DNA from: an uncultured Candidatus Saccharibacteria bacterium
GTDB taxonomy: Bacteria > Patescibacteriota > Minisyncoccia > Phycocordibacterales > DATDWN01
NCBI GenBank assembly: GCA_964596875.1
Contig: CAZQVT010000002.1
Coordinates: forward strand, 5,508-69,507
Direction of reading: 5' to 3'
Length of the DNA: 64,000 nt
In this document: positions 14,667 to 64,000 of the stretch, one piece after another
Layout of the letters: every line of letters starts with the position of its first letter
Position numbering within the stretch: position 1 is the first letter of the stretch
The notes under the pieces: model-generated
What the model was told of the DNA's origin: nothing
Seen by the model: the letters and a program-made list of their open reading frames with translations, nothing else
Database searches by the model: none
Program-made: the position numbers and the translations under genes

Positions 14667-14667
14667 T

Positions 14668-16223: not shown

Positions 16224-16237
16224 TTCCTAATTATACA

Positions 16238-18049: not shown

Positions 18050-18060
18050 AAAAGTTTATA

Positions 18061-18696: not shown

Positions 18697-18723
18697 AAAA
18701 ATATTATATCAGAAAAAAATAAA

Positions 18724-19161: not shown

Positions 19162-19195
19162 AGCAAAATTATATTACAAATTTAAAAAACAAAAT

Positions 19196-20071: not shown

Positions 20072-20075
20072 GTTT

Positions 20076-21986: not shown

Positions 21987-21993
21987 TTTTAAA

Positions 21994-23691: not shown

Positions 23692-23775
23692 ATAGAAAAT
23701 AATTTATATATTACAAACAAATTATATCCTATTATGAAAAGTAAATCTCAATAATAAACTCAAATATGTTGAAAA

Positions 23776-24612
23776 CTAACGAAATTCGGTAACTGTTTTT
23801 TTGCTCAAGAATGCATTTAGGGTAGTAACTGCTTTTCCAAAGTTTTGCATGTTTGTAGTATAGTCCCCCACAACAGAGAAAACTTTTACCGGATCAGAAA
23901 CTGCAGAACGTATTGCCTCCAGGTTGCTTAGTATTTTTGATGAGGCGTTCAAAAGGTTTAGGTGCATGGGTATTGCGGCTTCAGGAACCTCCATTTCAAG
24001 TAGCGTTTTAATTGTGCTCTTGTTTATGACTATGAGAGGGTCTAGTTTTTTGAGTTCCTTTTCGTTATCAGACTGTAGGCCGTTTACTAGTATGGCCATA
24101 GGGTCAACTTTTACATCATAATATACAGAAATAAGCGCTTGGTTTATTTTTTGAGAGTAAGCATCGAAAGTTAACGGGTCATCTTTTTTAATGATTTTTA
24201 AGTTTTCTTTGATGTATACAACTGAATTTTGCTTGTAGTCAGGCAGTGAAAGTGTGTTGTCTACTATTTTTGAGGCCATTTGAGGAGTAAGTCCTTGTCC
24301 GTTTTTAGCTATTATTAGATACTGCGACAAAATATCTCGAGACATTTGGTCTGTTAGAGTGTTGTCCCCTTCTGAAATATTTACTGTTTTTGTCAGGTCG
24401 ATAACTTTTGAGTTTGCTTTGTTGCTGTCAGTTAGAATTTTTTTCCAGTCGTAGTCCGTGTTTTTTATAGCTATGGGATCTTCAGCAACCACCCCATCTT
24501 TTTTAGTGGGTGTTGTTTTTGAGAGACTTTTTTGTTTGTTATTTATAAACCAAACCGAAACAACCACACCAAAACATAGTATAAAAATAGTAAGAGTTTT
24601 GTTACTAGGCAT
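23776..24612 (-). CDS. N-terminally anchored extracytoplasmic protein (278 aa). It is the first gene of the operon and a possible VirB8-like component.
   Basis: Single N-terminal TM plus a 240-aa domain. The size and topology fit VirB8-like proteins, but there is no sequence motif. Confidence 0.45.
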   Translation of the reverse strand: MPSNKTLTIFILCFGVVVSVWFINNKQKSLSKTTPTKKDGVVAEDPIAIKNTDYDWKKILTDSNKANSKVIDLTKTVNISEGDNTLTDQMSRDILSQYLIIAKNGQGLTPQMASKIVDNTLSLPDYKQNSVVYIKENLKIIKKDDPLTFDAYSQKINQALISVYYDVKVDPMAILVNGLQSDNEKELKKLDPLIVINKSTIKTLLEMEVPEAAIPMHLNLLNASSKILSNLEAIRSAVSDPVKVFSVVGDYTTNMQNFGKAVTTLNAFLSKKTVTEFR

Positions 24613-30293: not shown

Positions 30294-30422
30294 AACTTCC
30301 TAATTTGGCGAACTCCTCGTTCTCGTGTTTAAAAATGTTCGTCACCTTACGACTTGTAAGGCTCTTCTCATTTCTAAACTCTCAACATCGGATTTCATCC
30401 AAATTTCGAAAGTTTAATATTT
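30294..30422. repeat. Type-A hairpin repeat, copy 1
   Basis: AACTTCCTAATTTGGCGAACTCC...CTCGTCACCTTACgacttGTAAGGCTC...CTCTCAACATCGGATTTCATCCAAATTTCGAAAGTTTAAT. It starts immediately after the stop codon of the M23 gene. Confidence 0.8.
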
Positions 30423-34682: not shown

Positions 34683-35630
34683 ATGGCTTCGCTAAAACAA
34701 CTTAAACAGCAATTTTTAGAATATATTGAAATAGAAAGAGGCAGATCTTTAAAAACTGTTGAAAATTATGATCACTACATAGGTCGTTTTCTGGAGTTTA
34801 CTAAGAATGACAACCCTGGGAATATAACTGACCAGTCTGTAAGGGAGTTTAGACTGTGGTTGAACAGACAAACTACAGGAGATAAGAGAAAACCAAACGA
34901 AACTTTGTCTAAAAAAACTCAGAATTATTACCTTATTGCCCTAAGGGCGTTCCTAAAATACCTTGCTCGTCAGGAAGTAAAGTCATTGCCTGCAGAAAGG
35001 ATAGAGTTGGCCAAAGTCGGCGAAAGGTCACTAGATCTAATAACTGAAACTGAACTTGGAAGACTTTTAGACTCACCACAAGGTAGCGACATAAAAGATT
35101 TGCGTGACAGAGCAATACTAGAACTGCTTTTTTCAACTGGTCTGCGTGTTTCTGAACTTTGTGCACTTACGGCAGATATAGATCTAAACTCTGATGAACT
35201 TTCTGTTAGAGGAAAAGGAGGTAAGGTTAGAGTGGTTTTTCTATCTGATACAGCAAAAAAGGCAGTTAGGGACTATTTAACAAAGCGAAAAGACTTCAAC
35301 GAGGCACTTTTTGTTCAGTCTGGTGTAGAAGTTAGAAAAAAGAAGGAAGATAAAGACAAAAAAAATAAAAATACTCTTGAAACCGGTGCATTAACGAAAA
35401 GATCCATAGAGAGAATAGTAAAGCAACATGCTATAAAGGCGGGTATCTCAAAAAAAGTTACTCCCCACACCATTCGTCACCTATTTGCTACAGGGCTTCT
35501 TTCAAACGGAGCAGATATTCGTTCTGTACAGGCTATGCTGGGTCACTCTAGTATTATCACTACACAGATTTATACACACGTTACTGACAAACATTTACGC
35601 GATACCCACAAAAAATTTCATAAAAGATAG
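34683..35630 (+). CDS. Tyrosine recombinase XerC/XerD family
   Basis: C-terminal HTIRHLFATGLLSNGADIRSVQAMLGHSSIITTQIYTHV with the RHRY catalytic tetrad. The start is at MASLKQ. An extended -10 (TGgTATAAT) lies at about 34668. Confidence 0.88.
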   Translation: MASLKQLKQQFLEYIEIERGRSLKTVENYDHYIGRFLEFTKNDNPGNITDQSVREFRLWLNRQTTGDKRKPNETLSKKTQNYYLIALRAFLKYLARQEVKSLPAERIELAKVGERSLDLITETELGRLLDSPQGSDIKDLRDRAILELLFSTGLRVSELCALTADIDLNSDELSVRGKGGKVRVVFLSDTAKKAVRDYLTKRKDFNEALFVQSGVEVRKKKEDKDKKNKNTLETGALTKRSIERIVKQHAIKAGISKKVTPHTIRHLFATGLLSNGADIRSVQAMLGHSSIITTQIYTHVTDKHLRDTHKKFHKR

Positions 35631-35780
35631 CAAAACTAACTCATCTGCGTTGTTGGACTTCGATAAAATATTTCTCACCTTATTTTAATAAGGCTCGAAT
35701 TATTTTACTCGTCCGCCTAGCATCTAAGTCAGTTTTGCTATCTTTTATTTGAAATTTTGGTTTTATGTTATATTTTATTT

Positions 35781-36947: not shown

Positions 36948-37052
36948 TAGATTTTGCCAATCTCATCTTCTAAATTTTAAAAATGCTCGTCACCTTACTA
37001 AGTGTAAGGCTTCTCTCATTTTAAAAATTTATAAGCGACCTTGTCTAAAATC
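36948..37052. repeat. Type-B hairpin repeat, copy 1
   Basis: TTTTGCCAATCTCATCTTCTAAATTTTAAAAATGCTCGTCACCTTACtaagtGTAAGGCTTCTCTCATTTTAAAAATTT...AGCGACCTTGTCTAAAATC. It has an outer AT-rich stem and an inner hairpin. Confidence 0.75.
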
Positions 37053-37064
37053 TTCGGTTTGAAT

Positions 37065-40697: not shown

Positions 40698-41009
40698 ATG
40701 GTTTTTATAAAAAATAAAGAAAATTTTGTATGTGAAAAATGCGGCTTTGAGGTAGAAGGGGATGGTTTTACAAACCATTGTCCAGAGTGTTTGTGGTCAA
40801 AGCATGTAGATATTTCTCCTGGCGACAGACTAAATATCTGTGGGGGACTAATGGAACCAATACAAATACTGAAAAAGGGAAGAGAGTATTCTATTTTACA
40901 CAAATGTACAAAGTGTGGGTTTGAAAAACCTAATAAGGCAAGTATGAATGATAATTTCCAAATTATTGTCCAAGTTTCTGCATCTGGCCAATCTCATCGT
41001 CTAAAATAA
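40698..41009 (+). CDS. RNHCP-domain zinc-ribbon protein
   Basis: CEKCG...TNHCPECLWSKHVD...CTKCG. The last 8 codons and the stop codon lie inside the type-B repeat. Confidence 0.6.
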   Translation: MVFIKNKENFVCEKCGFEVEGDGFTNHCPECLWSKHVDISPGDRLNICGGLMEPIQILKKGREYSILHKCTKCGFEKPNKASMNDNFQIIVQVSASGQSHRLK

Positions 41010-41086
41010 TAAATAAAATTCTCAATGTACTAATTTGTACACCTCCAATTTTATTTATTATTTCATACGCGACCTTGTCTCAGATC
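40986..41086. repeat. Type-B hairpin repeat, copy 2
   Basis: GGCCAATCTCATCGTCTAAAATAA, then a perfect 18-bp AT-rich outer inverted repeat (AAAATAATAAATAAAATT / AATTTTATTTATTATTTT) enclosing TGTACtaatttGTACA, then ACGCGACCTTGTCTCAGAT. Confidence 0.8.
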
Positions 41087-41106
41087 CAGAAACTTTGTTA
41101 AAGGTT

Positions 41107-47130: not shown

Positions 47131-47305
47131 ATGAAAATGAGTCTATATTATTCGCCTTATTTTAGCAAATAATTTTTTAGAAAGCTTAAATTTGAGACAA
47201 GATTGCGGATAAAACAAAAACTGAACCCGGAGGTGTACATTTAGTACATTGAGGATTCAGTTTTTATTTTTAGCCGATAAGGTTGGCCAAATTTGAGCTT
47301 TTTAA

Positions 47306-50610: not shown

Positions 50611-52365
50611 ATGCACATTGAAGAAAAACAATTAAAAGATTTTATTTTGGATTCCGGTCTTGTTTCAAAGACAGATATTGAGGCTGTAGAAAAAGAAACA
50701 AAAGAAAAAGGTGGCAACTTGGGTAAAGCTTTGGTAAATAAGGGCAAACTTACCGAGGATGACTTGCGTCGAATGCAGGCATACATACTAGGTATTCCTT
50801 TTGTTGATTTGAAAAAAGAAAAACTTCCTTTCGAGGTCCTTTCACTTATTCCAGAGCCAATCGCAAGAAACCACAACATTGTGGCTTTTAAAAAAACTGA
50901 CAACAGTCTTGAGGTGGCCATGTTAGATACAGAAGACCTTACTGCTATAGATTTCGTTAAAAAGAAAACCGGTCTAAAGATTTTGCCTCGACTTACAGAT
51001 GATGAGTCAATAAAAAGTGCAATACTTCAGTATCAAAAAAGTCTAAAGGCAGAGTTCGGCGACCTTATTGCGGAGGATGTAAGTAATATTAAAAGTATTC
51101 CTTCAAATGTAGATGGTGCAGAACTAAACGAGCAGGATCTAAAAAAGATGGCCGATGATATCCCGATGATCCGTATCGTAGATACTCTTTTGAAACATGC
51201 CATACTTCAAAACGCTTCAGATATTCATATAGAGCCACAAGAAGCAGAACTTTTGGTGAGATACCGTATAGACGGATTACTGCATGATGCCATGATTTTA
51301 CCTAGAAACATGGCCCCAAGTATCGCTGCACGTATAAAAGTTCTGTCTTCTCTAAAACTAGATGAAAAAAGACTTCCACAGGACGGAAGATTTAAAATCG
51401 ACTCTGATGGAGAAAAAGTTTCTTTCCGTGTTTCATCACTTCCTACATATTACGGAGAAAAGATCGTGATGCGTTTGCTTCGTGAAAATGTTTCCGGTTT
51501 TACACTAGAAGCGCTTGCATTTCACGGGGAAGGGTTGGATAGAATCCATAAGGCGGTAAAAAGTACAACAGGAATGATCCTAACTACAGGTCCTACTGGT
51601 TCTGGTAAAACAACTACACTATATACTGTGCTAGATATCCTAAATACTCCAGATGTAAACATCTCTACTATTGAAGACCCTATCGAATACCAGATGAAAA
51701 GAGTAAACCAAACCCAGGTTCGTCCCGAAATCGGTTTTACTTTTGCTTCAGGACTCCGAACACTGGTTCGTCAGGATCCGGATATTATCATGGTAGGAGA
51801 GATTCGAGACGGTGAGACGGCGTCTCTGGCTATTAACGCGTCCCTTACAGGTCATGTTGTGCTTTCAACACTTCACACAAACTCTGCGGCGGGTGCCGTG
51901 CCTAGACTTATAGATATGAAAGTTGAACCTTTTCTTATTGTTTCTACTATAAATATTATTATTGGTCAGCGACTTGTACGAAAACTTACCGACCAAAAAG
52001 AGAAATACTTTTTAACAAAAGCCGAGATAGACACTTTGGGTAAGTCTATAAATCTAGATAAAGTACTAAACGCTCTTAAAGACGAAAAAGTTATTGGCAA
52101 AAGCGACAAATGGGAAGACGTTCCGTTTTGGCGACCTAAAAAAGACGCAAATCCAGAAGACTGTTTTGCAGGAAGAAGTGGTATTCACGAAATTCTAAAA
52201 GTTTCTCCGGCGATAAAAGAAATTATTTTGAAATCTGGTACAACAGATGATATTCAAAAAGTTGCAGAGGCTGAAGGTATGCTAACTATGATGGAAGATG
52301 GAATTTTCCAAGCAGTACAGGGTTATACAACTATTGAGGAGGTGCTTCGAGTTATTTCTGAATAG
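50611..52365 (+). CDS. pilB: Type IV pilus assembly ATPase PilB (GspE family)
   Basis: Walker A GPTGSGKTTTLY, Asp box, His box, and an N-terminal GspII-like domain. Confidence 0.92.
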   Translation: MHIEEKQLKDFILDSGLVSKTDIEAVEKETKEKGGNLGKALVNKGKLTEDDLRRMQAYILGIPFVDLKKEKLPFEVLSLIPEPIARNHNIVAFKKTDNSLEVAMLDTEDLTAIDFVKKKTGLKILPRLTDDESIKSAILQYQKSLKAEFGDLIAEDVSNIKSIPSNVDGAELNEQDLKKMADDIPMIRIVDTLLKHAILQNASDIHIEPQEAELLVRYRIDGLLHDAMILPRNMAPSIAARIKVLSSLKLDEKRLPQDGRFKIDSDGEKVSFRVSSLPTYYGEKIVMRLLRENVSGFTLEALAFHGEGLDRIHKAVKSTTGMILTTGPTGSGKTTTLYTVLDILNTPDVNISTIEDPIEYQMKRVNQTQVRPEIGFTFASGLRTLVRQDPDIIMVGEIRDGETASLAINASLTGHVVLSTLHTNSAAGAVPRLIDMKVEPFLIVSTINIIIGQRLVRKLTDQKEKYFLTKAEIDTLGKSINLDKVLNALKDEKVIGKSDKWEDVPFWRPKKDANPEDCFAGRSGIHEILKVSPAIKEIILKSGTTDDIQKVAEAEGMLTMMEDGIFQAVQGYTTIEEVLRVISE

Positions 52366-52495
52366 TATAGAACTTCCAAAACTGGCGAATTTCTTGTTTC
52401 GTTTTTGAAAATTCTCGTCAGTGTACTAAATGTACACCTCCTCATATTTCCAAACTCTCAACGTCGGATTTCATCCAGTTTGTGAAAGTTTAATG
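52366..52495. repeat. Type-A hairpin repeat, copy 2
   Basis: AACTTCCAAAACTGGCGAATTTCTTGTTTCG...CTCGTCAGTGTACtaaatGTACACCTCCTCA...CTCTCAACGTCGGATTTCATCCAGTTTGTGAAAGTTTAATG. It starts right after the pilB stop codon. Confidence 0.8.
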
Positions 52496-52620
52496 TTGTC
52501 TTGAGATTATTTGACAAAGTATATAAATGATGTATTGTTTGGTGTAGAAAGCTCCAGATGAGGCGAAGAACGTCTCCTTTCTAGAGAAGAGCTCTAGGAT
52601 GATCGGAGTTGAGGCTTATC

Positions 52621-53106
52621 ATGGTTGAAAGAATCGATGGGAAAGTGTCTGCGGGTGTGTGTTTTGCCGCAGCATTACTGCTCTCCCTTCTTACCTTCTT
52701 GATGTCTGAGAAGACAAGCACTGCCTTTTGTGCGTCGGCAGTGGTGTTCGCTGTCATGGGGTGGATTTCAGTCGCGTGTCTTTGTGACGACATTCGCCTT
52801 CAATGGCAGCGTGGCGAGAATGCCTGCAAAGAGAGAGAGGACAGAATCAATCTCGTAGTGTCCACATTCCTCACACAAGAGGCCGTGGATGCAAAGTTAC
52901 AACAACTGGCTACAAAAGCAGAGAACATGTTTCGTGACCAGGCCCAGTACCACGAGGGCAAGGAACGAAACATCGACGACGTCACTGCTCTGCTGATTGC
53001 TCGAGCCGTGGCAAATGCAAAGAGTGAATTCTGGTCGGCACACGAGTTGGCCAAGAGTCTCGGCTTCAAGGTCCGTCCCAAGATCAGAAGCTACACCAAG
53101 AAGTAG
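52621..53106 (+). CDS. Hypothetical 2-TM membrane protein encoded on a GC-rich (about 52%) insert between pilB and pilC
   Basis: ORF of 161 aa ending in a GC-rich palindromic terminator. Confidence 0.45.
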   Translation: MVERIDGKVSAGVCFAAALLLSLLTFLMSEKTSTAFCASAVVFAVMGWISVACLCDDIRLQWQRGENACKEREDRINLVVSTFLTQEAVDAKLQQLATKAENMFRDQAQYHEGKERNIDDVTALLIARAVANAKSEFWSAHELAKSLGFKVRPKIRSYTKK

Positions 53107-53114
53107 CACCATCG

Positions 53115-53143
53115 CGCCCGCGGGTCACACAGACCCGCGGGCG
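53115..53143 (+). terminator. GC-rich perfect palindrome CGCCCGCGGGTcacacagACCCGCGGGCG
   Basis: Seen in the sequence directly after the stop codon of the 52621 ORF. Confidence 0.6.
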
Positions 53144-53428
53144 TTTCGCATATAAAAACGAGTCTTAATTTTTTAAAACATTGCACAGTCAATTAGAAAA
53201 CAACGACTGGAAGCGTCAGTCTGGAGAAACTGTTTGAGACACGTAACCGTGGCGAGTTTTTCGAGAAGACGAGCGAGAAGGAGGTTGTTTTCTTGATTGA
53301 CGAGCATAGTAAAAGTTCAACAGAACTTTATACGTGTTTTAAAAAATAAGATGAGTCTATTTTTATTCACAATATTTAAATACAAATAATTTTTGTTTTG
53401 ATACAATTATAGAAGCGAAAAAACTTTT

Positions 53429-54640
53429 ATGTTGTTTCATTACAAAATTTTAAATAAAGAGGGAAAGGTGGTGGAGGGGAATATGGAAGCAAAAGATAAA
53501 TTTGCTCTATATCATACTATTAAACAAGACGGTGCCACTGTAGTTTCTGCTGAAGAAGTAAAAGATAAAAAAGAATATAACATTCCTATACTTTCAGCGA
53601 TGTTTGAAGGTGTAAAAACTCGTGACAAAATCACTTTTGCAAAAAACTTGGCAAAAATGACAGAGGCTGGTCTACCAATAACACGTGCACTTTCTATTTT
53701 GGAAAGACAGGCAAAGGGCCAGTTCAAAAAAATACTAGTTGGTCTTCAGGATTCACTAAACAAAGGAGATACTCTAAGTGATGCGATGAAAGTGTATCCA
53801 AAAGTTTTTTCTACACTTTTTATATCTATGGTAAAAGCAGGTGAAGAGTCTGGAAACCTAGCACAATCTCTACAGAACGTTGGTATGCAAATGGAAAAGT
53901 CATATCTTCTCACTAAAAAAATCCGGGGAGCGATGATGTATCCTGCAGTTATTTTCTCACTCATGATAGTTATTGGAGTTTTGATGATGGTTTACATGGT
54001 GCCAACACTTACAGCAACATTTATTGGTCTTGGTATAAAACTTCCTCTGTCTACGCGTATTATTATTTGGATAAGTAACTTCCTAAAATCAAACTTTATA
54101 TACGTTATATTGGGAACTATTGGTTCAATATTTCTTTTCATTACAGGTTACAGAACACAAAAAGGCCAACGTATTGCGGACTATGTCTTCTTGCATCTGC
54201 CAGTAATAAAGGAGATTGTAAAACAAATAAACTCTGCTCGTACCGCCAGAACTTTATCCTCACTCATTTCTTCTGGAGTTGATATCGTTTTGGCGATAGG
54301 AATTACAAAAGAAGTTATACAAAACTCATATTATAAAACTGTATTGCAAGAAATACAGGAGGTGATTCAAAAAGGAGAGCCAATATCTGCTGTATTTACT
54401 GCAAATCCAAAACTTTATCCTCTTTTTGTGGGAGAAATGGTTTCTGTGGGTGAAGAGACGGGTAAAATCGGTGAAATGCTTATGGGTGTAGCGACATACT
54501 ATGAAGAAGAAGTGGATCAGAAGACAAAAGATATGTCTTCAATCATTGAGCCGATTCTGATGATATTTATTGGTGCAGCGGTGGGATTTTTCGCACTGAG
54601 TATGCTAGGTCCGACTTATTCACTCGCCGACGCACTGTAG
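53429..54640 (+). CDS. pilC: Type IV pilus inner-membrane platform protein PilC (GspF family)
   Basis: Two GspF repeats and 3 TM segments. Confidence 0.9.
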   Translation: MLFHYKILNKEGKVVEGNMEAKDKFALYHTIKQDGATVVSAEEVKDKKEYNIPILSAMFEGVKTRDKITFAKNLAKMTEAGLPITRALSILERQAKGQFKKILVGLQDSLNKGDTLSDAMKVYPKVFSTLFISMVKAGEESGNLAQSLQNVGMQMEKSYLLTKKIRGAMMYPAVIFSLMIVIGVLMMVYMVPTLTATFIGLGIKLPLSTRIIIWISNFLKSNFIYVILGTIGSIFLFITGYRTQKGQRIADYVFLHLPVIKEIVKQINSARTARTLSSLISSGVDIVLAIGITKEVIQNSYYKTVLQEIQEVIQKGEPISAVFTANPKLYPLFVGEMVSVGEETGKIGEMLMGVATYYEEEVDQKTKDMSSIIEPILMIFIGAAVGFFALSMLGPTYSLADAL

Positions 54641-54760
54641 AAATTCCAAATTTGGCGAATTCCTTGTTTCGGTTTTGAAAATTCTCGGCGATGTACTATT
54701 TGTACACCTTCTCGGATTTTCAAAACCTCAACTACGGACTTCACTCAAATTTTAAATTTC
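54641..54760. repeat. Type-A hairpin repeat, copy 3
   Basis: AAATTCCAAATTTGGCGAATTCCTTGTTTCGG...CTCGGCGATGTACtatttGTACACCTTCTC. It lies between the pilC stop codon and the pilin gene start. Confidence 0.8.
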
Positions 54761-54765
54761 TAAGA

Positions 54766-56577
54766 ATGCTAATGAAAATAAAAAATTTAAAACAAAATAC
54801 TAAAAAGGGTTTCTCGCTAGTCGAGTTACTTGTTGGTGTAACAGTTTTTACTGTTATCTGTGTGGTAGTATACGGTGCATATACAAGTATTTTTGATGTT
54901 GTGAAAACAAGTAGAGCAAAACTAGATGCCGTCGACCTTTCAAATGAACAGTTTGAAATCATCCGCAACTTACCATACGCAGATGTTGGTATATACGGAA
55001 GTATTCCTTCGGGACTTTTGACTCATTCGCAGACTCTTGTGCGTGGTCAAAATTCTTTTGATGTGACAACTACAGTGAGAAATGTTGATGATCCTTTTGA
55101 CGGAACACTTGGAGGTGCTCCAAACGATCTTTCACCGGCAGACTTTAAACTAGTAGAGTTAGAAATAAACTGTACACTTTGTAAAAACTTTGTTCCGATC
55201 GTATTTACCACAAGAGTTGCGCCAAAAAATCTTGAAACAGCAAGTACAAACGGAGCACTCTTCGTAAAAGTTTTTGATGCTAATGGAAATCCTGTTGCGG
55301 ATGCAAATGTTCATATTGTAAACAGTACAAACAACCCACCGATAACAATAGACGACGTAACAAATGCAAACGGTATGCTCCAGGTGGTAGATGCTCCACC
55401 AGGAGTAAACGCGTATGATATTACAGTAAGTAAAAGCGGTTACTCTACAGACAAGACATATGCACCGACAGGGGGAAATCCAAATCCAGTAAAGCCACTT
55501 GCTACTGTGGCGCTTCAGCAAGTTACTCAACTTTCTTTCACTATAGACAGAACGAGTACTTTTAATGTGAGTTCGGTAACTTCAAGCTGTACACCTGTTG
55601 GAAATATAGACTTCAATATTAAAGGAGCAAAACTTTTGGGAACAACTCCTGATGTTTTGAAATATGATCAGGACAAGTTTACAAACGGGGGAGGGTTACT
55701 ATCTATAAGTGGTCTAGAGTGGGATTCTTACACTTTAACTTTGGAAGACTCAGTTTACGATCTTGTTGGTTGGAACCCTATTTCTCCTATAAGTTTACTG
55801 CCGAACAGTACACAGGATATACAACTCGTAGTTGCAACAAAAAATCCTAGAACTCTAGTAGTCACTGTTTTGGATGGTTCAACCAACCTTCCACTTTCTG
55901 GTGTAGATGTAACAATTTCAAAATCTGGATTTACTTCAGTTACAAACTCAACTGGTCAGGGTTTTATAAATCAAACAGACTGGTCAGGAGGATCGGGACA
56001 AGCAACTAGTACAGACCCGTCACAGTATTTTACTTCAGATGGAAATATTGCAAACAACAACCCAGCAGGTGAACTTACACTCGCACAAGTTTTTGGGGAG
56101 TATGTGAGTAGCGGAGTTTTGACTTCATCAACATTTAATATTGGCTCACCTGCAAACTTTCAAAAAATTGGTTGGAACCCAACAAGTCAGCCTCCACAGT
56201 CCGGTTCTCCTACTGTAAGGTTTCAAATCGCTACAAACAACGATGGTGGTGCTTGGAACTATACTGGTCCAGACGGCACAGCGGGAACATTTTATACTGT
56301 AGGGGATCAAAATATTCATAGTTCAAACAACTCCAAACAATATTTGAGATATAAATTATTTCTAGATTCTGCTTCTACGGCTACATCTCCAAATATTTCT
56401 GATGTATCATTTACTTACACATCACAGTGTACTCCTCCGGGACAAGTATCTTTCTCCGGACTACCTGCTGGAACTTATGATGTTCATTTGGAAAAAACAG
56501 GTTACGTTGACCAGGATATATCTGTGAGTGTAAGTACTGACTGGCAGAACCAAAGTGTTATTTTGTTGCCAAACTAA
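54766..56577 (+). CDS. Giant type IV pilin-like protein (about 600 aa) with an N-terminal prepilin cleavage/methylation motif
   Basis: N-terminus MLMKIKNLKQNTKKGFSLVELLVGVTVF is a class III signal. It is followed by a large Thr/Asn/Gly-rich beta domain. Confidence 0.7.
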   Translation: MLMKIKNLKQNTKKGFSLVELLVGVTVFTVICVVVYGAYTSIFDVVKTSRAKLDAVDLSNEQFEIIRNLPYADVGIYGSIPSGLLTHSQTLVRGQNSFDVTTTVRNVDDPFDGTLGGAPNDLSPADFKLVELEINCTLCKNFVPIVFTTRVAPKNLETASTNGALFVKVFDANGNPVADANVHIVNSTNNPPITIDDVTNANGMLQVVDAPPGVNAYDITVSKSGYSTDKTYAPTGGNPNPVKPLATVALQQVTQLSFTIDRTSTFNVSSVTSSCTPVGNIDFNIKGAKLLGTTPDVLKYDQDKFTNGGGLLSISGLEWDSYTLTLEDSVYDLVGWNPISPISLLPNSTQDIQLVVATKNPRTLVVTVLDGSTNLPLSGVDVTISKSGFTSVTNSTGQGFINQTDWSGGSGQATSTDPSQYFTSDGNIANNNPAGELTLAQVFGEYVSSGVLTSSTFNIGSPANFQKIGWNPTSQPPQSGSPTVRFQIATNNDGGAWNYTGPDGTAGTFYTVGDQNIHSSNNSKQYLRYKLFLDSASTATSPNISDVSFTYTSQCTPPGQVSFSGLPAGTYDVHLEKTGYVDQDISVSVSTDWQNQSVILLPN

Positions 56578-57196: not shown

Positions 57197-58653
57197 TGAA
57201 AAACAAAAAAATATCACAACGAGGCAGTTTGATGATACAGGCACTAGTTTTCGGTTCCATTTCTGTTGTTCTTATAGGTGCACTTATTAGTTGGGCTGCT
57301 GTAAACATTAAGTCCGGTAAACTTTCAATAAAAAGAGAACAAGCATTACAAATAGCAGAGGCGGGAATAGATTACTATAGATGGCATTTGGCACATGCTG
57401 CTACAGATTATCAGGATGGTACAGGTGTAGCGGGCCCATATGTGCACGACTTTTTCGATAAAGACGGAGTAAAAATCGGAGAATATTCTCTAGAGATTAC
57501 ACCACCACCTACAGGTTTTACTTTGGTAAAAATAAAATCAACAGGAAAACTTTTGTCAGACCCAACAGTAACTAGAACAATACAGACAGGTCTAGCGATA
57601 CCTTCACTTGCAAAATATGCTATTGCCTCAAACAGTGACATTCGTTTTGGAGAGGGAACAGAAGTTTTTGGTCCTATACATTCAAACGGTGGTATACGTT
57701 TTGATGGTCTAGCACACAACTTGGTTACAAGTTCAAGAACATCCTACGATGATCCTGACCACACAGGAGGTTCAGAATATGGTGTTCATACACACTTGAA
57801 CATTCCTCCAACTAGCACAAATGATACCTTTCGTGCTGCAGAGGCACCGAATGCTACTTTAGCAAACAGAGCCGACGTATTTATGGCGGGTAGACAGTTT
57901 CCAGTTCCGGCTATCGACTTTCTAGGATTTACAACTGACCTTGCGACTATAAAAACAAACGCTCAGGCAAGTGGAAGATATTTTGGAGCATCTGGTGCTT
58001 TGGGTTATAGAGTCTTATTTAAAACAGATGACACTTTTGATTTGTACAGAGTAAACAATATTACTGCAACACCAAACAACTGTAGTGAAACTACAACCGG
58101 TTGGGGAACATGGAGTATTAGAACAACAAACGGTTCTCAAACTTTTATAGCAAACTACGCTATACCTGCAAACGGACTTATCTTTGTGGAGGACAATGTT
58201 TGGGCAGAGGGGCAAATAAATAGTGCCAGAGTAACTTTGGCTGCAGGAAAGTTTCCAGACAATGCTGCAACTAGACCTAATATAATGATAAATAATAATC
58301 TTTTGTATACAAACTATGATGGTCAGGATGTTATTTCGCTTATTTCACAGGGAAATATAAACGCAGGGCTTTCGAGTGCAAGTACTATGCGTGTGGACGC
58401 TGCTTTGGTTGCACAAAATGGTCGCGTAGGTAGATATCACTATTCTTCAAACTGTGGAACTGGCTATCAGAGAACAAAAATTACACTATATGGAATGATC
58501 GCAAGTAACCAAAGATACGGTTTTGCCTATACAGACGATACTGGCTATGCAGAAAGAGACATTATATATGATGCAAACTTGTTGTATGGTCCGCCGCCTA
58601 GTTTCCCGCTGACCGGCGATCAGTATCAGATAGTCTTCTGGCAAGAACTGTAA
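57196..58653 (+). CDS. PilX-N-like pilus assembly / minor pilin-like protein
   Basis: QRGSLMIQALVFGSISVVLIGAL is a PilX_N-type hydrophobic N-terminus with Q at +5. It is followed by a 450-aa extracellular domain. Confidence 0.55.
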   Translation: MKNKKISQRGSLMIQALVFGSISVVLIGALISWAAVNIKSGKLSIKREQALQIAEAGIDYYRWHLAHAATDYQDGTGVAGPYVHDFFDKDGVKIGEYSLEITPPPTGFTLVKIKSTGKLLSDPTVTRTIQTGLAIPSLAKYAIASNSDIRFGEGTEVFGPIHSNGGIRFDGLAHNLVTSSRTSYDDPDHTGGSEYGVHTHLNIPPTSTNDTFRAAEAPNATLANRADVFMAGRQFPVPAIDFLGFTTDLATIKTNAQASGRYFGASGALGYRVLFKTDDTFDLYRVNNITATPNNCSETTTGWGTWSIRTTNGSQTFIANYAIPANGLIFVEDNVWAEGQINSARVTLAAGKFPDNAATRPNIMINNNLLYTNYDGQDVISLISQGNINAGLSSASTMRVDAALVAQNGRVGRYHYSSNCGTGYQRTKITLYGMIASNQRYGFAYTDDTGYAERDIIYDANLLYGPPPSFPLTGDQYQIVFWQEL

Positions 58654-58763
58654 AACTTCCAAATTTGGCCAATCTCATCGTCTAAAATAAAACCCGGCTC
58701 GTCAATGTACCGTAAGTACACCTCCGATCCGGTTTTTATTTTATACGCGATCTTGTCTCAAAT
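58654..58763. repeat. Type-B hairpin repeat, copy 3
   Basis: AACTTCCAAATTTGGCCAATCTCATCGTCTAAAATAAAACCCGGCTCGTCAATGTACcgtaaGTACACCTCCGATCCGGTTTTTATTTTATACGCGATCTTGTCTCAAAT. Confidence 0.8.
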
Positions 58764-58836
58764 TATAAAAGTTCTACCACATCGGCGTATATTGGATTTT
58801 CGTATACAAAACAATAATTTGGTACAATATTGCCAT

Positions 58837-59595
58837 ATGAAAAAACAGAAAAAACTGATTGTGGGGAACTGGAAGATGAATCCGGTTGAAGTAGAAGATG
58901 CCAAAGACATTGTAAGTGCAGTCAAAAGAAGCGCGGCGAAATTAAAGAAAGCCCAAGTGGTTGTTTGTCCTCCATTTGTATACACATCATTATTTACAAA
59001 ATCTAAGGGCACAAACTTTTTCCTTGGTGCACAAAATGCAAACTCTGAAACTTCTGGTTCATATACTGGTGAAGTAAGTTTCTCAATGCTGTATCAGCTT
59101 GGTGTGCGTTTTGTTATCGTTGGACACTCTGAGAGGCGAAAGATGGGGGAAACAGACGAAGTTGTAAACAACAAAGTAAAATCTGTTGTAAACGGAGGTA
59201 TGACAGCGATTGTTTGTATTGGAGAGTCTAATAGAGATCATAACGGAGATTATCTTGAGTTAATCAGAAAACAAATTCACATTGCTTTAACTGATGTTCC
59301 TAAAAAACTCTTACCTCAAGTAGTTATTGCGTATGAACCTGTCTGGGCTATTGGAGCAACGAGTGCTATGTCGCCAAGAGATTTACATGAAATGTATATT
59401 TATATTAAAAAAGTTTTAAACGATATGTTTAGTATCGCAAGTGATGATGTGAGGATCCTTTATGGTGGTTCAGTAGACAGTGTAAATGCAGAAGAACTTA
59501 TGAAAGAGGGAAATGTTTCAGGATTTTTGATTGGAAGGCAGAGTCTGGCACCAAAAGATTTTATAGAAATTATGAAACTAGTAGACCAAAACTAA
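58837..59595 (+). CDS. tpiA: Triosephosphate isomerase
   Basis: LIVGNWKMN...VGHSERR...AYEPVWAIG. The start is taken at M45 of the ORF. Confidence 0.9.
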   Translation: MKKQKKLIVGNWKMNPVEVEDAKDIVSAVKRSAAKLKKAQVVVCPPFVYTSLFTKSKGTNFFLGAQNANSETSGSYTGEVSFSMLYQLGVRFVIVGHSERRKMGETDEVVNNKVKSVVNGGMTAIVCIGESNRDHNGDYLELIRKQIHIALTDVPKKLLPQVVIAYEPVWAIGATSAMSPRDLHEMYIYIKKVLNDMFSIASDDVRILYGGSVDSVNAEELMKEGNVSGFLIGRQSLAPKDFIEIMKLVDQN

Positions 59596-59596
59596 A

Positions 59597-60730
59597 ATGA
59601 AATATCTAAATGACTTAGCAGAAGGGGATTTGAAAGGTAAATACGTGTTACTAAGACTTGATCTAAACGTGCCTATTATAAATGGTGAGGTAAATGACAC
59701 TTTTAGACTAGATAGAGTTATAGATACAGTAGATTTATTGCGAGAGAAAGGCGCGAGAACTATTATTATTTCTCATATAGAAAGTGGCGACAAAACATTA
59801 GTCCCTGTTTGGCATTATCTAAACGGCTTTTTTCCTCTAGAGTTTTCTCCTACATACTTTACTGCTGAATCTATAGAAAAAGTTTCAAAACTAGAAGACA
59901 GAGGGGTGATACTTTTCGAAAACCTTCGAGTAAACCCGGGCGAGAAAGAAAACGATGAAGAGTTTGCAAAAAAACTTTCACAAATGGCGGAGATTTATGT
60001 AAATGATGCTTTCGCAGTTTCACACAGAAAACACGCTTCTATTGTCGGTGTGCCAAAGTTTCTACCATCTTATGCAGGACTTCTTATGCGACAGGAGGTA
60101 GAACACTTGGGAAAAGCCTTTAACCCAGAGCGACCATTTATTTTTATACTTGGCGGAGCAAAGTTTGAAACAAAAATGCCACTCATCACAAAGTTTATCG
60201 GAAAGGCAGATAAAATTTTCCTTGCAGGTGCACTCGCAAACAATATTTTCAAAGAAAGAGGTTTGGAACTTGGGACATCACTTGTTTCAGAAGTTACTGC
60301 GGACTTGCGAGGTATATCTAACAGTGAAAAAGTCGTAACACCAACGGATGTTACTGTAACAAACGGAAACAAAGAAGTAATAAACAGAAGAGATTGTGAA
60401 CTGTTGAAAGACGAGTGCATTGTAGATGTTGGTCAGGAGACTATTCATCAGTTACAAAATTTAGTTAAGGGAAGTAGAACTATTTTGTGGAATGGTCCTT
60501 TGGGAAACTATGAGTTAGGTTTTCAAGATAAGACAGAAGTGCTAGCAAAAATGGTGGCAGATCTTACAAAAAATGAAGGCGTTACTTCTATAGTTGGTGG
60601 GGGAGATACTATTGCTTCGATAAACAAACTTGGCTTAAACGATGATTTCACTTTTATTTCTACTGGAGGCGGTGCGATGTTGGACTACCTGGTGAACGAA
60701 ACCCTCCCCGGTCTGGACGCACTTAAATAA
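59597..60730 (+). CDS. pgk: Phosphoglycerate kinase
   Basis: VLLRLDLNVP N-terminus and a full-length PGK. Confidence 0.95.
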   Translation: MKYLNDLAEGDLKGKYVLLRLDLNVPIINGEVNDTFRLDRVIDTVDLLREKGARTIIISHIESGDKTLVPVWHYLNGFFPLEFSPTYFTAESIEKVSKLEDRGVILFENLRVNPGEKENDEEFAKKLSQMAEIYVNDAFAVSHRKHASIVGVPKFLPSYAGLLMRQEVEHLGKAFNPERPFIFILGGAKFETKMPLITKFIGKADKIFLAGALANNIFKERGLELGTSLVSEVTADLRGISNSEKVVTPTDVTVTNGNKEVINRRDCELLKDECIVDVGQETIHQLQNLVKGSRTILWNGPLGNYELGFQDKTEVLAKMVADLTKNEGVTSIVGGGDTIASINKLGLNDDFTFISTGGGAMLDYLVNETLPGLDALK

Positions 60731-60743
60731 TTCACTAGAAAAA

Positions 60744-60771
60744 CCGCACACTTGGAGGAGTGTGCGGTTTT
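60744..60771. terminator. pgk terminator hairpin CCGCACACTtggaggAGTGTGCGG plus TTTT. It is also the left direct repeat flanking the GC-rich cassette.
   Basis: The identical 28-mer occurs again at 61501..61528. Confidence 0.75.
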
Positions 60772-60927
60772 ACTATGCTTGACTTTAATGCATATATTGT
60801 GGCATAATTTAGGAGTAGAAGTTCTTTTATTAAGATTAGTGTAGTCATAGCCAAAAGAGGTTTAAGTACAGACACTTTTTGGCTATGACTACATCGTGTG
60901 GTCCGCTAGCACAACCATGGAGGTTGT

Positions 60928-61467
60928 ATGAAGATCAGTGATGTCTCGAAACTCAGGGGACCGCTCGGAGAACTCATGAACCAGCTTCTCGGCCAGAACG
61001 GTGAGGAGCGACTTGCAGAACTCAACCTCTGGCTCAAGCGAGTCGGTGTTGGGATTCTCCTCACCATCGACCGAACTCTGACTGCCGAACAGGCAGTGGA
61101 GAAGACCGGTCGAGTCTGGTGGCACAAGAACCAGGTGGAGCTCGACAACGCTCCAATCTCTGGATCGTTTCAAGTCTCGCTGGAGATCTTCGAGCTCGAC
61201 TACGAGCCGACGCTGGTGGAACTCGACAGAGAGTACGCCTCTCGGGGTCTCAAGCCTGATCTCTCGGCTCTCTCACAGTACATATGCGAGAAGCCGGAAG
61301 CAGCAGACGACAGACCCATCGCTTGCCAGTGGGGTTTCAAGCCCGAAGGTACTGCAGCGTGCGCCGTCTTTAACCGGGGCACCTCGGAGCGCGGTGTGTT
61401 CGTGGACCGCTTCGGCACTCGCTGGGGTCGTCTGTATCGTTTCGCCGGCGTTCGTGAAGTCAAGTAA
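60928..61467 (+). CDS. Hypothetical 179-aa protein on a 58% GC cassette
   Basis: A GGAGGT SD lies 7 nt upstream. The codon usage is unlike the AT-rich neighbours. No recognisable domain. Confidence 0.5.
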   Translation: MKISDVSKLRGPLGELMNQLLGQNGEERLAELNLWLKRVGVGILLTIDRTLTAEQAVEKTGRVWWHKNQVELDNAPISGSFQVSLEIFELDYEPTLVELDREYASRGLKPDLSALSQYICEKPEAADDRPIACQWGFKPEGTAACAVFNRGTSERGVFVDRFGTRWGRLYRFAGVREVK

Positions 61468-61500
61468 CACAAGCCCTCAACTATGAGGCAAAATATATGA

Positions 61501-61528
61501 CCGCACACTTGGAGGAGTGTGCGGTTTT
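61501..61528. terminator. Second copy of the CCGCACACTTGGAGGAGTGTGCGGTTTT hairpin. It terminates both the cassette gene (+) and the HIT gene (-).
   Basis: Direct repeat of 60744..60771. Confidence 0.75.
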
Positions 61529-61532
61529 TCGT

Positions 61533-61874
61533 TTATATTTCGTTCAAGTCCTTGTTTTCTGTTGTTTGAAGCTTAAGCGGTATTAGGTGAACATGAACAT
61601 GTGGAACATCTGTGCCAACGATTCCTAATCTAACATAGTCAGCGTCGTAATCATTTTTAAGTTGTAATCCAAGTTTTTTTGCCACCTTAAATAATTCAGT
61701 ATATGTTTCGTCCGGTACATCCAGAAACCATCTATGATGATCTTTGGTTATAAGGAGTGTGTGACCGGGTGCTTTCGGGTGGATATCGAGGAAAGCTATA
61801 GTTTTATCATCCTCATAAGTTTTTTTAGCTGGTATTTCTCCACTTACTATTTTGCAAAATATACAGTCATTCAT
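61533..61874 (-). CDS. HIT-family (histidine triad) hydrolase
   Basis: MNDCIFCKI...HVHVHLIP. Confidence 0.85.
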   Translation of the reverse strand: MNDCIFCKIVSGEIPAKKTYEDDKTIAFLDIHPKAPGHTLLITKDHHRWFLDVPDETYTELFKVAKKLGLQLKNDYDADYVRLGIVGTDVPHVHVHLIPLKLQTTENKDLNEI

Positions 61875-62108
61875 AAACTTTATATTACCACAAAAACCTC
61901 GTTGAACTCATGACTTTTGTGGAACATCGCGGAACCCGTGAAGAGGTGAGTGAGAAAGTCTGGGAGACTTTCGCAAGACCTTGAGCACAAAGTGGCGAAA
62001 GGTGTACAGTTCCTGTAAGGAACGAAGAAATTTGCCAGCAGGCGAATATTCTGTTTCCAGAAAAGTTATGAGGAAAAAGAGGTTGTTTATGTGTGCTAAA
62101 CTATTGGG

Positions 62109-63845
62109 ATGACTAAATACGCTGTACGAAAGCTTATTCCGAAAAAGGCAGACAAAAATCTAGAGGGCTACTCTCCACTTGTGAAATCCCTACTTCACAC
62201 TAGAGGGATAGAAGACTCAGATACAGCAGAGAAGTTTCTAAACCCAAAGTATGAAGACTTGCACGACCCCTTTTTGCTTAAAAATATAGACAAGGCAGTA
62301 GAGAGAATATTGTCGGCGATAAAGACGGATGAAAAGATTGGGATTTTCTCTGACTATGATGCAGATGGTATTCCTGGTGCAGTAGCACTACACGACTTTT
62401 TCAAAAAGATTGGTTTTGATAATTTTATAAACTATATTCCACTTCGAAACGAGGAGGGCTTTGGTCTAAACGACACAGCGATAGAAAATCTTAGAGACCA
62501 GGGAGTAAAACTTGTTATCACGATAGACTGCGGTATTACAGATGTTTCCCAGGTAGAACTTGCAAATAAGTTTGGTATGGATGTGATTATCACCGACCAC
62601 CACTTGCCACATGCAGAAGTTCCAAAAGCATTTGCAATAATAAACCCAAAACAAGAAGGGTGTGAGTATCCAGACAAAATGCTTTGTGGTAGTGGAGTGA
62701 TTTTCAAACTGATCCAAGCACTTATAAAACGTGGAAATGAAACTGGAGTTTTTGAGCTGAAGGATGGTCAGGAAAAGTGGTTTCTAGATATGGTGGGACT
62801 AGCGACACTATCGGATATGGTGCCACTTACAAATGAAAACAGAATTATCTCGTACTACGGAATGAAAGTTTTACAAAGAAGTCCTCGTCCAGGGCTTCAG
62901 AAACTACTTGCACTACTTAAGATAAACCAAAACAAACTTACCGAAGACGATATTGGCTTTATGATAACTCCTCGCATAAACGCAGCGTCTCGTATGGGGG
63001 TGCCACTCGATGCCTTTAAACTACTTTCTACAAAAGACGAGGTGGAGGCTGGGGTTTTGGCAAAACATTTGGATGAAAAAAACAGTGAGAGAAAAGGTGT
63101 GGTGGGAAGTATGATACGAGAGATAAAAAAGAAAATAGAGGACAGGGGGGAGGGTGTTAGAAACGTTTTGGTTTTCGGAAATCCAGAATGGAAACCGTCA
63201 CTATTAGGCCTTGTTGCAAATAGTTTTTCAGATGAACACGCGAGACCATCATTTTTCTGGGGAAGAAACGGCGAAACAGAAAGTGACGGTGGAGTAATAA
63301 AGGGCTCATGTCGAAGTGGTAGCAATATAAATATCGTAAAACTAATGGAGAAAACTAAAGAGTCTTTTGTAGACTATGGAGGGCACCAAGGTGCTGGTGG
63401 GTTCTCAGTCCTTCCGGAAAAAATACACACCTTGGAGGAGGATCTAAACAATGCCTTTCTAGAGCTAGAAAAAACAGGAGAACTATTGGATGAGGAAGAG
63501 GTTTGGGTAGATAAGGTTTTGAGTTTGGATGATGTGAGTTGGAATACTTGGAGAGACTTGGAAAAGTTTGCACCTTTTGGACTAGATAATCCTAAACCAC
63601 TTTTTCTTTTTGAAAATGTAGAGATAGTAAACTCTAAACTTTTTGGTAAAGAAAAAAACCATCTTGAGTTAACTTTTAGAAAAAATGACGGTAAAGAAGT
63701 AAAAGCTATAGCATTTTTTGAAAACGGAGATGGTTACAACGGCAAAGCAAAAACAGGGGAGAAGATAAACCTAGTGGGTCACATAGAAAAGTCCGACTTT
63801 AGAAATTTCCCAGAATTGAGACTGCGAATAGTCGATGTTTACTAA
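62109..63845 (+). CDS. recJ: Single-stranded-DNA-specific exonuclease RecJ
   Basis: DHH motifs (DYDADGI, ITDHH), a DHHA1 GGGH motif and a C-terminal OB fold. Confidence 0.9.
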   Translation: MTKYAVRKLIPKKADKNLEGYSPLVKSLLHTRGIEDSDTAEKFLNPKYEDLHDPFLLKNIDKAVERILSAIKTDEKIGIFSDYDADGIPGAVALHDFFKKIGFDNFINYIPLRNEEGFGLNDTAIENLRDQGVKLVITIDCGITDVSQVELANKFGMDVIITDHHLPHAEVPKAFAIINPKQEGCEYPDKMLCGSGVIFKLIQALIKRGNETGVFELKDGQEKWFLDMVGLATLSDMVPLTNENRIISYYGMKVLQRSPRPGLQKLLALLKINQNKLTEDDIGFMITPRINAASRMGVPLDAFKLLSTKDEVEAGVLAKHLDEKNSERKGVVGSMIREIKKKIEDRGEGVRNVLVFGNPEWKPSLLGLVANSFSDEHARPSFFWGRNGETESDGGVIKGSCRSGSNINIVKLMEKTKESFVDYGGHQGAGGFSVLPEKIHTLEEDLNNAFLELEKTGELLDEEEVWVDKVLSLDDVSWNTWRDLEKFAPFGLDNPKPLFLFENVEIVNSKLFGKEKNHLELTFRKNDGKEVKAIAFFENGDGYNGKAKTGEKINLVGHIEKSDFRNFPELRLRIVDVY

Positions 63846-63894
63846 TTTGACAAGTATTTAAAAAAGTTTTAATTTATCGGTAAGGGGAGTGACA

Positions 63895-64000
63895 TGGCAT
63901 TGTTTCGTTACGCCGTACTTCTGGTGGTCAAGGCAATATTGATCACCTTGGTCTTTCGAGTCCTGGTGGTGGTACTCGGGTATTCGGAGCAGTTCCCGTC
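63895..64000 (+). CDS. Partial ORF (runs off the window) for a hydrophobic protein. It is GC-rich with a GGGGAG SD.
   Basis: MALFRYAVLLVVKAILITLVFRVLVVVLGYSEQFP... The local GC is about 52%. Confidence 0.3.

Follow-up and report, generated by a model that had tools for sequence, protein, structure and literature searches.

We analyzed a 64-kb stretch of DNA, here called the window, from an uncultured member of the Patescibacteria (Paceibacteria; contig CAZQVT010000002.1), and within it a small gene cassette that lies between two identical hairpins in the gap between pgk and a HIT-family gene. The phosphoglycerate kinase gene pgk (59597–60730, forward strand) matches Pfam PGK with E = 1.8e-101, and the HIT-family gene (61533–61874, reverse strand; Pfam HIT, E = 9e-22) is convergent with both pgk and the cassette. 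An earlier note on this DNA had reported a 28-bp direct repeat, CCGCACACTTGGAGGAGTGTGCGGTTTT, at 60744 and 61501. These are the only two exact matches, and no third copy was found in the window at up to 3 mismatches (shuffled sequences expect 0). The exactness of the repeat and its 757-bp spacing hold, but identity extends by one base to 29 nt, ACCGCACACTTGGAGGAGTGTGCGGTTTT, with forward-strand copies at 60743–60771 (copy 1) and 61500–61528 (copy 2). No other perfect direct repeat of at least 20 nt within 6 kb occurs in the window. The pgk stop codon precedes copy 1 by 12 nt, with GAAAA directly on the 5′ side of the copy, and copy 2 ends 4 nt short of the convergent HIT stop codon. Each copy is a hairpin, hairpin A, with a GC-rich stem of 9–10 bp and a loop TGGAGG/GGAG, followed by TTTT; its RNA fold has a free energy of −23.8 kcal/mol (z = −8.7). 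Both copies, in identical flanks, are also present in an independent k = 31 Logan assembly of run SRR12712864 (locus L005).

The 728 bp between the repeats form the sole GC-rich island of the window, which has 37.3% GC overall. The 58% GC previously ascribed to all of this DNA is correct for the open reading frame (ORF) and not for the whole insert (52.7%); the first 156 bp, comprising promoter and leader, have 37%. The cassette has its own sigma-70-type promoter, TTGACT-18-(TG)CATAAT (60779–60808, forward strand), with 10 of 12 matches and a TG-extended −10 element. This is the best promoter match of the region, and the homology shared across the cassette family begins at its −35 element; its position is kept in L087, L001, L004, L098 and L088 of the related loci. 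Downstream, a conserved 5′ leader hairpin (60840–60893, forward strand) contains a 17-bp inverted repeat that the earlier note had placed at 60846–60899. The inverted repeat is real and perfect, its arms being 100% complementary, but lies about 6 nt further left, at 60840–60856 and 60877–60893. The leader hairpin occurs in nine cassettes, for which RNAalifold gives a 22-pair helix with compensatory double changes at 5 pairs, for example GTAGTC/GACTAC versus GTGGTC/GACCAC and AGCC/GGCT versus AGCG/CGCT, and across the family the leader is better conserved than the protein. Just before the ATG, a 6-bp helix (ACAACC/GGTTGT, 60911–60927, forward strand), essentially invariant in 9 sequences, occludes part of the Shine–Dalgarno sequence GGAGGT, which is confirmed at 60919–60924. 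Together, the leader hairpin and this helix may form a translational or stability control element. Rfam gave no credible family for 58000–64000 and 52300–54900 of the window at E ≤ 1, nor for L100, L087 and L101 at gathering thresholds. The only match to the leader profile outside the cassette family is at L029 3138–3229, where a hairpin resembling GTCATAGCCAAAAG...CTTTTGGCTATGAC lies upstream of tpiA/pgk in a Nomurabacteria genome.

The reported 179-aa ORF is present at 60928–61467 (forward strand). No Pfam or NCBIfam model matched it, and a profile search of PDB sequences returned nothing. Structure prediction gave a two-helix N-terminal module followed by a domain with a predicted C-type lectin (CLec) fold. 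Homology searches returned 33 homologs by word index and 1,097 cluster representatives by exhaustive profile search; the latter are small proteins of about 140–215 aa in which the domain is C-terminal in all. In at least nine other loci, a homolog lies directly upstream of a template repeat (TR), an Avd gene and a reverse transcriptase (RT) gene, as in a diversity-generating retroelement (DGR). In L001, downstream of a 65%-identical gene come a 108-nt copy of the gene's 3′ end, then a bAvd gene whose product matches NCBIfam DivGenRetAVD, and an RVT_1 gene. The same layout of target, TR, Avd (reverse strand) and RT (forward strand) recurs in L090–L095, L097 and L098. The variable repeat (VR) and TR pairs of six loci are 94–108 nt long, and 87 of their 95 mismatches fall at TR adenines. 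Such concentration of mismatches at TR adenines is the hallmark of DGRs. In these homologous loci, the downstream TR, Avd and RT would rewrite the VR by adenine-specific mutagenic retrohoming.

The window ORF is predicted to carry a VR within its CLec fold. Its last ~33 codons, to ...RFAGVR (61357–61455, forward strand), align with the VRs of L001, L098 and L090–L093, and in the protein alignment the last ~33 residues of the family are hypervariable within a fixed frame, xVxVxRxxxRWxRxxRFAGVR. Compared with heterologous TRs, this stretch differs at 71–75% of TR-adenine sites and at 22–27% of the others; it contains 12% A, and the non-VR part of the ORF contains 24% A and 19% T. From the context of its homologs and the mismatches at TR adenines, we assign the ORF, until now of unknown function, with high confidence as a DGR variable-protein gene. 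Much of an arrangement that had seemed to have no explanation is thereby accounted for by a known system. The DGR targets of Patescibacteria have been described as lacking recognizable domains and as probably novel CLec variants, and targets remote from their retroelement exist (PMC8144416). The family profile and the patterns of hairpin and leader had no match among viral contigs, thus a phage origin is not supported.

The N-terminal module is also found elsewhere. A second family of about 195 aa (P0020–P0032) shares the first ~40 residues (MKITDVSKLRGPLGEL..NGEERLAELNLWLKRV) at 70–87% identity, and its C-terminal domain differs but also ends in a hypervariable stretch, which indicates modular exchange of N-terminal and variable modules. 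The L101 cassette is the converse case, in which the N-terminus is replaced.

High GC is a property of the whole family: each member is an island of 54–63% GC in a host of 35–50% GC. GC content at third codon positions (GC3) is 0.56–0.70 in the target genes of the window, L001, L087, L100 and L008, against 0.20–0.36 in host genes and in the DGR's own RT and Avd. The bias spans the whole target ORF and not just the VR, and it is not adenine depletion. Adenine content is not reduced outside the VR, and mutagenic retro-copying of the whole gene at adenines was therefore rejected as the cause of the bias, which might instead stem from GC-biased gene conversion at a recombination hot spot.

The window copy stands alone. 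Searches of the window by tblastn with the RT and Avd of L001 gave no match, and no TR was found there by blastn of the cassette or by an adenine-tolerant sliding scan, which in control runs recovers the TRs of L001, L098 and L093 with 0 non-adenine mismatches. Pfam annotation of 50 window ORFs found no RT or transposase domain. The window ORFs are otherwise ordinary chromosomal genes, including dnaA/dnaN, a type IV secretion system (T4SS) cluster and a type IV pilus operon, and there is one Xer-like tyrosine recombinase (Phage_integrase, 34683–35627), 26 kb from the cassette. Cassettes with no local RT or TR also occur in L002 and L004 (between split transketolase genes), L100, L101, L102 and L087. 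The window copy would thus be an orphan or else a remote target on which a DGR at another place in the genome acts in trans; for ongoing diversification it is a candidate only.

Next, we compared the pgk/HIT gap among relatives. The order pgk, HIT (reverse strand), recJ is conserved across ~70 Paceibacteria loci, and the spacing between pgk and HIT is usually about 100 bp or less. In the loci closest by pgk (L007, 89% identical, and L010) and in those closest by HIT (L103 and L105, 73–75%), the two genes overlap or abut and there is no hairpin. The insert is, as proposed, a discrete cassette that is present in some relatives and absent from others. An empty site with a single hairpin was sought and is not among these relatives, all four of which are free of both cassette and hairpin. 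Exact-protein look-ups with the cassette, pgk and HIT products returned one Logan contig, of the same structure, and no strain-level empty site. The gap holds family cassettes in L087 (56% identity), L101 (62%) and L008 (24%, same architecture), and unrelated genes in ~20 other genomes. On these gene orders, the pgk/HIT gap is a recurrent home for DGR-target cassettes in the clade.

The flanks of the cassette are mosaic. The window tpiA/pgk genes are 74–89% identical to those of L007 and L008, whose HIT genes are only 50–52% identical. Conversely, over the compared region 58705–61874, the window HIT is 73–75% identical to that of L103 and L105, whose pgk is only 56–62% identical, and recJ is ~72% identical to all four. 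The cassette ORF is mosaic as well: its core is 60% identical to that of the L087 cassette and 65–71% to cassettes in other contexts, and its N-terminus is 86% identical to P0005. Thus, repeated recombination at the pgk/HIT junction is indicated, and the gap may be a long-standing landing or exchange place for cassettes. Vertical inheritance of the ORF together with its site was considered and is not clearly supported, given this mosaic cassette. In a further locus, L022 (JAGWJT010000008.1), Avd and DGR RT genes (51% and 61% identical to those of L001) lie at 2603–3976, directly upstream of pgk. The pgk–HIT gap of this locus is 610 bp and has no clear ORF, and perfect repeats of 25 and 29 nt, at 2027/2491 and 2092/2556, resemble a VR/TR pair.

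Comparison of the window and L087 cassettes separates conserved from diverged parts. Nucleotide identity is 80% over promoter and leader and 81% over the 3′ untranslated region (3′UTR), and hairpin A, the copy 2 element, is conserved at 28 of 29 positions, whereas third codon positions are 47% identical in the cassette ORF. The non-coding parts of the cassette are therefore under selection. Third positions of HIT are likewise 47% identical, so that the two cassettes have been separated for about as long as their hosts. Since this level is saturated for synonymous changes, the cassette appears to be an old resident of the gap and not a fresh capture, or else cassettes may have been exchanged. 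The 3′UTR also contains a small conserved hairpin, CCTCA-ACTA-TGAGG (61475–61488, forward strand; 5-bp stem and 4-nt loop), 19 nt past the VR, and L087 retains its stem with a different loop. In L087 (JACCDV010480442), hairpin A lies downstream of the cassette with an identical junction between 3′UTR and hairpin, and none is visible upstream, where the 17 visible nt before the −35 element (AATACCCATACTTTTAC) share only TTTTAC with the window. Hairpin A is thus tied to the conserved 3′ end of the cassette at least as much as to pgk.

Several roles can be proposed for hairpin A. Copy 2 would terminate transcription of the cassette and, on the opposite strand, of HIT, and copy 1 would now keep read-through from pgk away from the cassette promoter. 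Terminator-type hairpins likewise flank other family cassettes on both sides. Guo et al. (PMC3240598) showed that a GC-rich hairpin or cruciform of 7–10 bp, with a 4-nt GRNA loop and 4–34 bp after the VR, is required in DGR targets. Hairpin A is probably also this element, and is a candidate for recognition by the DGR. The unusual conservation of hairpin A, loop included, is atypical for a mere terminator, and makes a dual role as terminator and DGR recognition element likely. Hairpin A is not a dispersed element of the repetitive extragenic palindrome (REP) or miniature inverted-repeat transposable element (MITE) type, as it has 2 copies in the window at up to 3 mismatches and among 100 related loci is found only in L087.

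The window does contain a dispersed family of intergenic repeats of ~125 nt. The earlier note had raised the prospect that the hairpins belong to such a generic family, and they do not, as hairpin A is not part of it. The repeats start a few nt from stop codons and follow the pattern TTCCAAAnnTGGCGAA...GTGTAC-loop-GTACAC...CTCAACGTCGGATTTCA. Members in the window are at 52372–52495, 54642–54769, 30295–30419, 36951–37059, 58655–58773, 40982–41091, 35634–35734 and 47225–47295 (reverse strand). Elsewhere they occur at L100 1899–2023, L001 2670–2785, L004 3656–3776, L008 3016–3138, L007 2743–2848, L002 4008–4130 and L088 3570–3692. The family has no Rfam match and precedes several cassettes.

We then considered how the pair of hairpins arose. 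The GAAAA to the left of copy 1 and the TC to the right of copy 2 rebuild a perfect bidirectional terminator with 15-bp arms and A5/T5 ends, GAAAAACCGCACACT-TGGAGG-AGTGTGCGGTTTTTC, and each present copy is less perfect than this rebuilt terminator. Two further loci show an insert between perfect copies of its target (repeat-insert-repeat, A-X-A). In L100 (GCA_039740815.1, JBCLGV010000015.1), a 124-bp perfect repeat of the argS 3′ end (1774–1897 and 2921–3044) defines a unit of 1,023 bp with an intergenic repeat module, promoter, leader, a 58%-identical DGR-target gene and a terminator. The inner edges of this repeat coincide with the ends of homology to other cassettes, and no RT or TR was found on the 4.6-kb contig. 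In L040 (JAQTPS010000005.1), from another Paceibacterota genome, the pgk/HIT gap holds a 905-bp insert that encodes a 273-aa membrane protein with no relation to DGRs; on either side of it is a perfect 38-bp repeat (5569–5606 and 6512–6549) comprising the last 11 codons and stop of HIT. Among 792 kb of related DNA scanned, no other clean A-X-A cases were found; the remaining perfect repeats are VR/TR pairs, paralogs and dispersed modules. The perfect repeats of L017 and L044 were rejected as target duplications because they are parts of longer imperfect dispersed repeats, and no flanking repeats were found around the cassettes of L001, L002, L004, L008 and L098.

Taken together, we consider it likely that the locus is a stand-alone DGR-target cassette in a long-standing landing place and that the 29-bp repeat is the footprint of an A-X-A insertion-duplication. 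A number of points weigh against this. No relative has a lone hairpin and no cassette. The presence of the L087 hairpin downstream only, together with cassette-free relatives that have no hairpin, fits equally well with a hairpin that belongs to the cassette and was copied upstream. As a DGR element, hairpin A has a GGAG/TGGAGG loop in place of the 4-nt GRNA loop of published DGR hairpins, and it starts ~45 nt past the VR end, beyond the published range. This reading does not account for the high GC3 of the target cassette, a cognate TR, RT and Avd were not found in a search that covered the window only, and we identified no enzyme or intermediate for the insertion. The claim of a duplicated target terminator, as first made, is accordingly upheld in its exact repeat, and gains the rebuilt terminator and the precedents of L100 and L040, while it is weakened by the missing lone hairpin and by the one-sided hairpin of L087.

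The strongest alternative is that the hairpin is the cassette's own 3′ element and that the upstream copy is secondary, and not a target-site duplication. Copy 1 could then have taken the place of an older upstream terminator through gene conversion or a local template switch, or it could be what is left of a second cassette in tandem, of which only the 3′ hairpin survived. Known DGRs include some with several targets in tandem, every target having a VR and a hairpin. L087 fits this alternative, since its 3′UTR and 28/29 hairpin are shared downstream and its upstream 17 nt keep only TTTTAC, as do the four hairpin-less, cassette-free relatives and the family architecture of terminator, promoter, gene and terminator. 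However, the rebuilding of a perfect terminator with 15-bp arms from GAAAA and TC is what would be expected if a single hairpin once stood between pgk and HIT. Furthermore, 7 nt separate copy 1, at its inner edge, from the beginning of family homology, just as the L100 repeat abuts the ends of its unit, and L100 and L040 show that true target duplications occur. We regard a cassette-borne hairpin as possible but the less probable origin.

The exact repeat, the strong GC contrast and the absence of the insert in relatives would be accounted for if an unrecognized mobile element, inserting in terminator hairpins and duplicating them, had recently captured a GC-rich gene of foreign origin. Yet GC-richness is no mark of recent foreign origin, being a family trait in AT-rich hosts, and is seen even in canonical DGR loci with AT-rich RT and Avd genes. 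Third-codon identity to the L087 cassette is saturated and equals that of HIT, the insert has neither terminal inverted repeats nor a transposase, and duplications of 29, 38 and 124 bp are incompatible with one transposase. Capture of this kind is improbable.

A further proposal, which we put forward only as speculation and rate as a long shot, is that Patescibacteria DGR target genes are mobile cassettes copied by a hairpin-directed or RT-dependent route. For instance, the template might switch to a terminated mRNA at its 3′ end, or a cruciform that the DGR machinery recognizes might be broken. Such a process would leave long and variable perfect target duplications, with the 29-bp repeat here and the 124-bp repeat in L100 as its footprints, and would seed remote targets.

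In another reading, a DGR-type or group-II-like RT could have copied a cassette transcript and switched onto the 3′ end of pgk mRNA, or been primed at a nick by the hairpin, with later integration of the cDNA. Target-primed reverse transcription (TPRT) and hairpin recognition have been discussed for DGRs and group IIC introns (PMC3240598), and DGR RTs do occur in the clade. The right edge of the repeat, hairpin plus exactly UUUU, is the expected 3′ end of a terminated pgk transcript. The duplication lengths vary as in TPRT, and the window unit starts later than the L100/L001 unit, which fits 5′ truncation. Against this, the insert includes its own promoter, so that the template cannot be the cassette's own mRNA, and its non-VR part is not depleted of adenine. 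The cargo of L040 is unrelated to DGRs, the repeats of L100 and L040 end 1–2 nt past a stop codon and not at a terminator 3′ end, and no RT was found in the window. We consider RNA-mediated copying of this sort very unlikely.

Less probable still is site-specific recombination at the hairpin, as a dif/Xer-like site or short attC in the manner of integrons, pdif modules or integrative mobile elements exploiting Xer (IMEX), with the recombinase at 34683–35627 acting in trans. The two sites are directly oriented, their arms of ~10–11 bp and asymmetric 6-bp spacer give a 10-6-10 architecture, and the window has a Phage_integrase/Xer-type gene. Against this, hairpin A does not, to our knowledge, resemble known dif sequences, none of them a Patescibacteria consensus. 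Its two copies are the only ones in 64 kb, and they lie ~50 kb from dnaA/dnaN (8424–11073) and not at the terminus. Each is only a fraction of the length of an attC, and a promoter is present in the cassette. The repeats of L100 (124 bp) and L040 (38 bp) are coding DNA and not recombinase sites, and other family cassettes have no flanking repeats. Finally, both sequences come from metagenome data, and an A-X-A structure can arise when an empty chromosome and a 757-bp circle that shares its sequence are threaded together, but we discount an assembly artefact almost entirely, because the 29-nt repeat is shorter than k = 31 and the independent Logan contig reproduces the integrated junctions (a-A-a and g-A-t), not those of a circle or empty site.

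Returning to the insertion-duplication, it most likely arose by recombination or replication. In a naturally competent lineage, a copy in circular or permuted form could have integrated by Campbell-type insertion-duplication; alternatively, a switch of template may have occurred, or the palindrome may have suffered a staggered break. It is unlikely that a transposase or integron integrase made the duplication: lengths of 29, 38 and 124 bp, inserts without shared ends and the lack of a mobility gene disfavor these enzymes and a dedicated att site. Our confidence in any specific enzymology is low.

Other features of these genomes were recorded alongside. Between pilB (T2SSE, 50611–52365) and pilC (T2SSF, 53429–54640), the window region 52366–53428 holds a GC-richer 165-aa ORF (52609–53106) with no family match and a GC-rich terminator at ~53110–53145. 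The complete DGR of L001 sits in the same pilB/pilC gap, which may be a second cassette-holding gap. In L044, an imperfect repeat of ~100 nt (31 nt perfect) at 8467–8560 and 8995–9092 falls within the coding sequences of recJ and of the RNase H-like gene downstream of it, and may be a repeat element inserted in frame. The window dnaN/dnaA genes (8424–11073) place the origin near 11 kb, and the cumulative GC-skew minimum is near 50 kb. A T4SS cluster of the Patescibacteria type spans 12439–24612, with VirB4/TraG-like (16241–18049) and PrgI (18727–19161) genes amid many ORFs that have no family match.

The analysis turns an apparent orphan GC-rich island in a minimal Patescibacteria genome into an identifiable stand-alone gene for a DGR hypervariable protein, and places on record a large unannotated family (~1,100 representatives) as DGR targets. 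Two by-products are the conserved structured 5′ leader common to these genes and a strong GC bias that is confined to the target gene and does not extend to the retroelement's own RT and Avd. A third by-product, three independent Paceibacteria inserts of one gene each with long perfect target duplications, suggests an undescribed, transposase-independent route of insertion in these small genomes, which are naturally competent and prone to recombination. Should a hairpin or an RT turn out to direct this route, the origin of remote DGR targets would be explained.

Finally, we compared the cassette to known systems. Integron cassettes and Xer modules (IMEX, pdif) similarly consist of a single small gene between short palindromic sites with no mobility gene of their own, and a tyrosine recombinase is encoded elsewhere in the window. 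However, the window site is a perfect 29-bp hairpin and not an imperfect attC of 57–141 bp or a dif-like site, and the other A-X-A cases use coding sequence as the repeat. With its own strong promoter, no array, no adjacent intI and the tyrosine recombinase 26 kb away, the cassette was rejected as an integron gene cassette. It was also rejected as a transposon or insertion sequence, given that there are no inverted repeats at the insert ends, the sole ORF encodes the CLec protein, and the duplications are 29, 38 and 124 bp.

Group IIC introns and other TPRT retroelements share insertion beside a GC-rich intrinsic-terminator hairpin and variable-length duplication. Guo et al. noted the parallel between DGRs and terminator-targeting group IIC introns, and DGR RTs are evolutionarily linked to group II intron RTs (PMC3240598). 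The window insert, in contrast, has no intron RNA domains (no Rfam match) and no RT, but has a promoter, and group IIC introns themselves make no duplication.

The products of Campbell-type insertion-duplication, as in the insertion-duplication mutagenesis of naturally transformable bacteria, are closer. They have the same A-X-A form with identical copies of a target segment, the segment is of arbitrary sequence and length (here 29, 38 and 124 bp), and the ends of the insert are not conserved. For Patescibacteria, natural competence is documented (PMC10633639). The Campbell-type products differ in that no circular intermediate or donor was observed here, 29 bp of homology is at the lower limit for RecA-dependent exchange, and the first acquisition of the target segment by the circle is left without explanation.

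The DGR variable proteins, such as Bordetella phage Mtd, Treponema TvpA and the Patescibacteria 'clade 2' targets of Roux et al. 2021, are the comparison for the gene itself. Unlike these, the window gene forms a package with a promoter, a conserved structured leader and terminators of its own, the GC content of its whole ORF exceeds that of the host, and that of the RT and Avd of the DGR, by 20 points, and hairpins stand on both sides, with a loop and VR distance that differ from the phage consensus. It also has no RT, Avd or TR within 64 kb, although remote targets are a recognized variant. In common with DGR targets, the window protein has a predicted CLec fold with a putative VR in its last ~33 codons, codons templated by AAC/AAT, and no recognizable Pfam domain, as reported for targets of the candidate phyla radiation (CPR). 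Its homologs are paired with TR, Avd and RT, their mismatches are adenine-specific, and in the window gene a GC-rich hairpin, a candidate for the DGR element, follows the putative VR.

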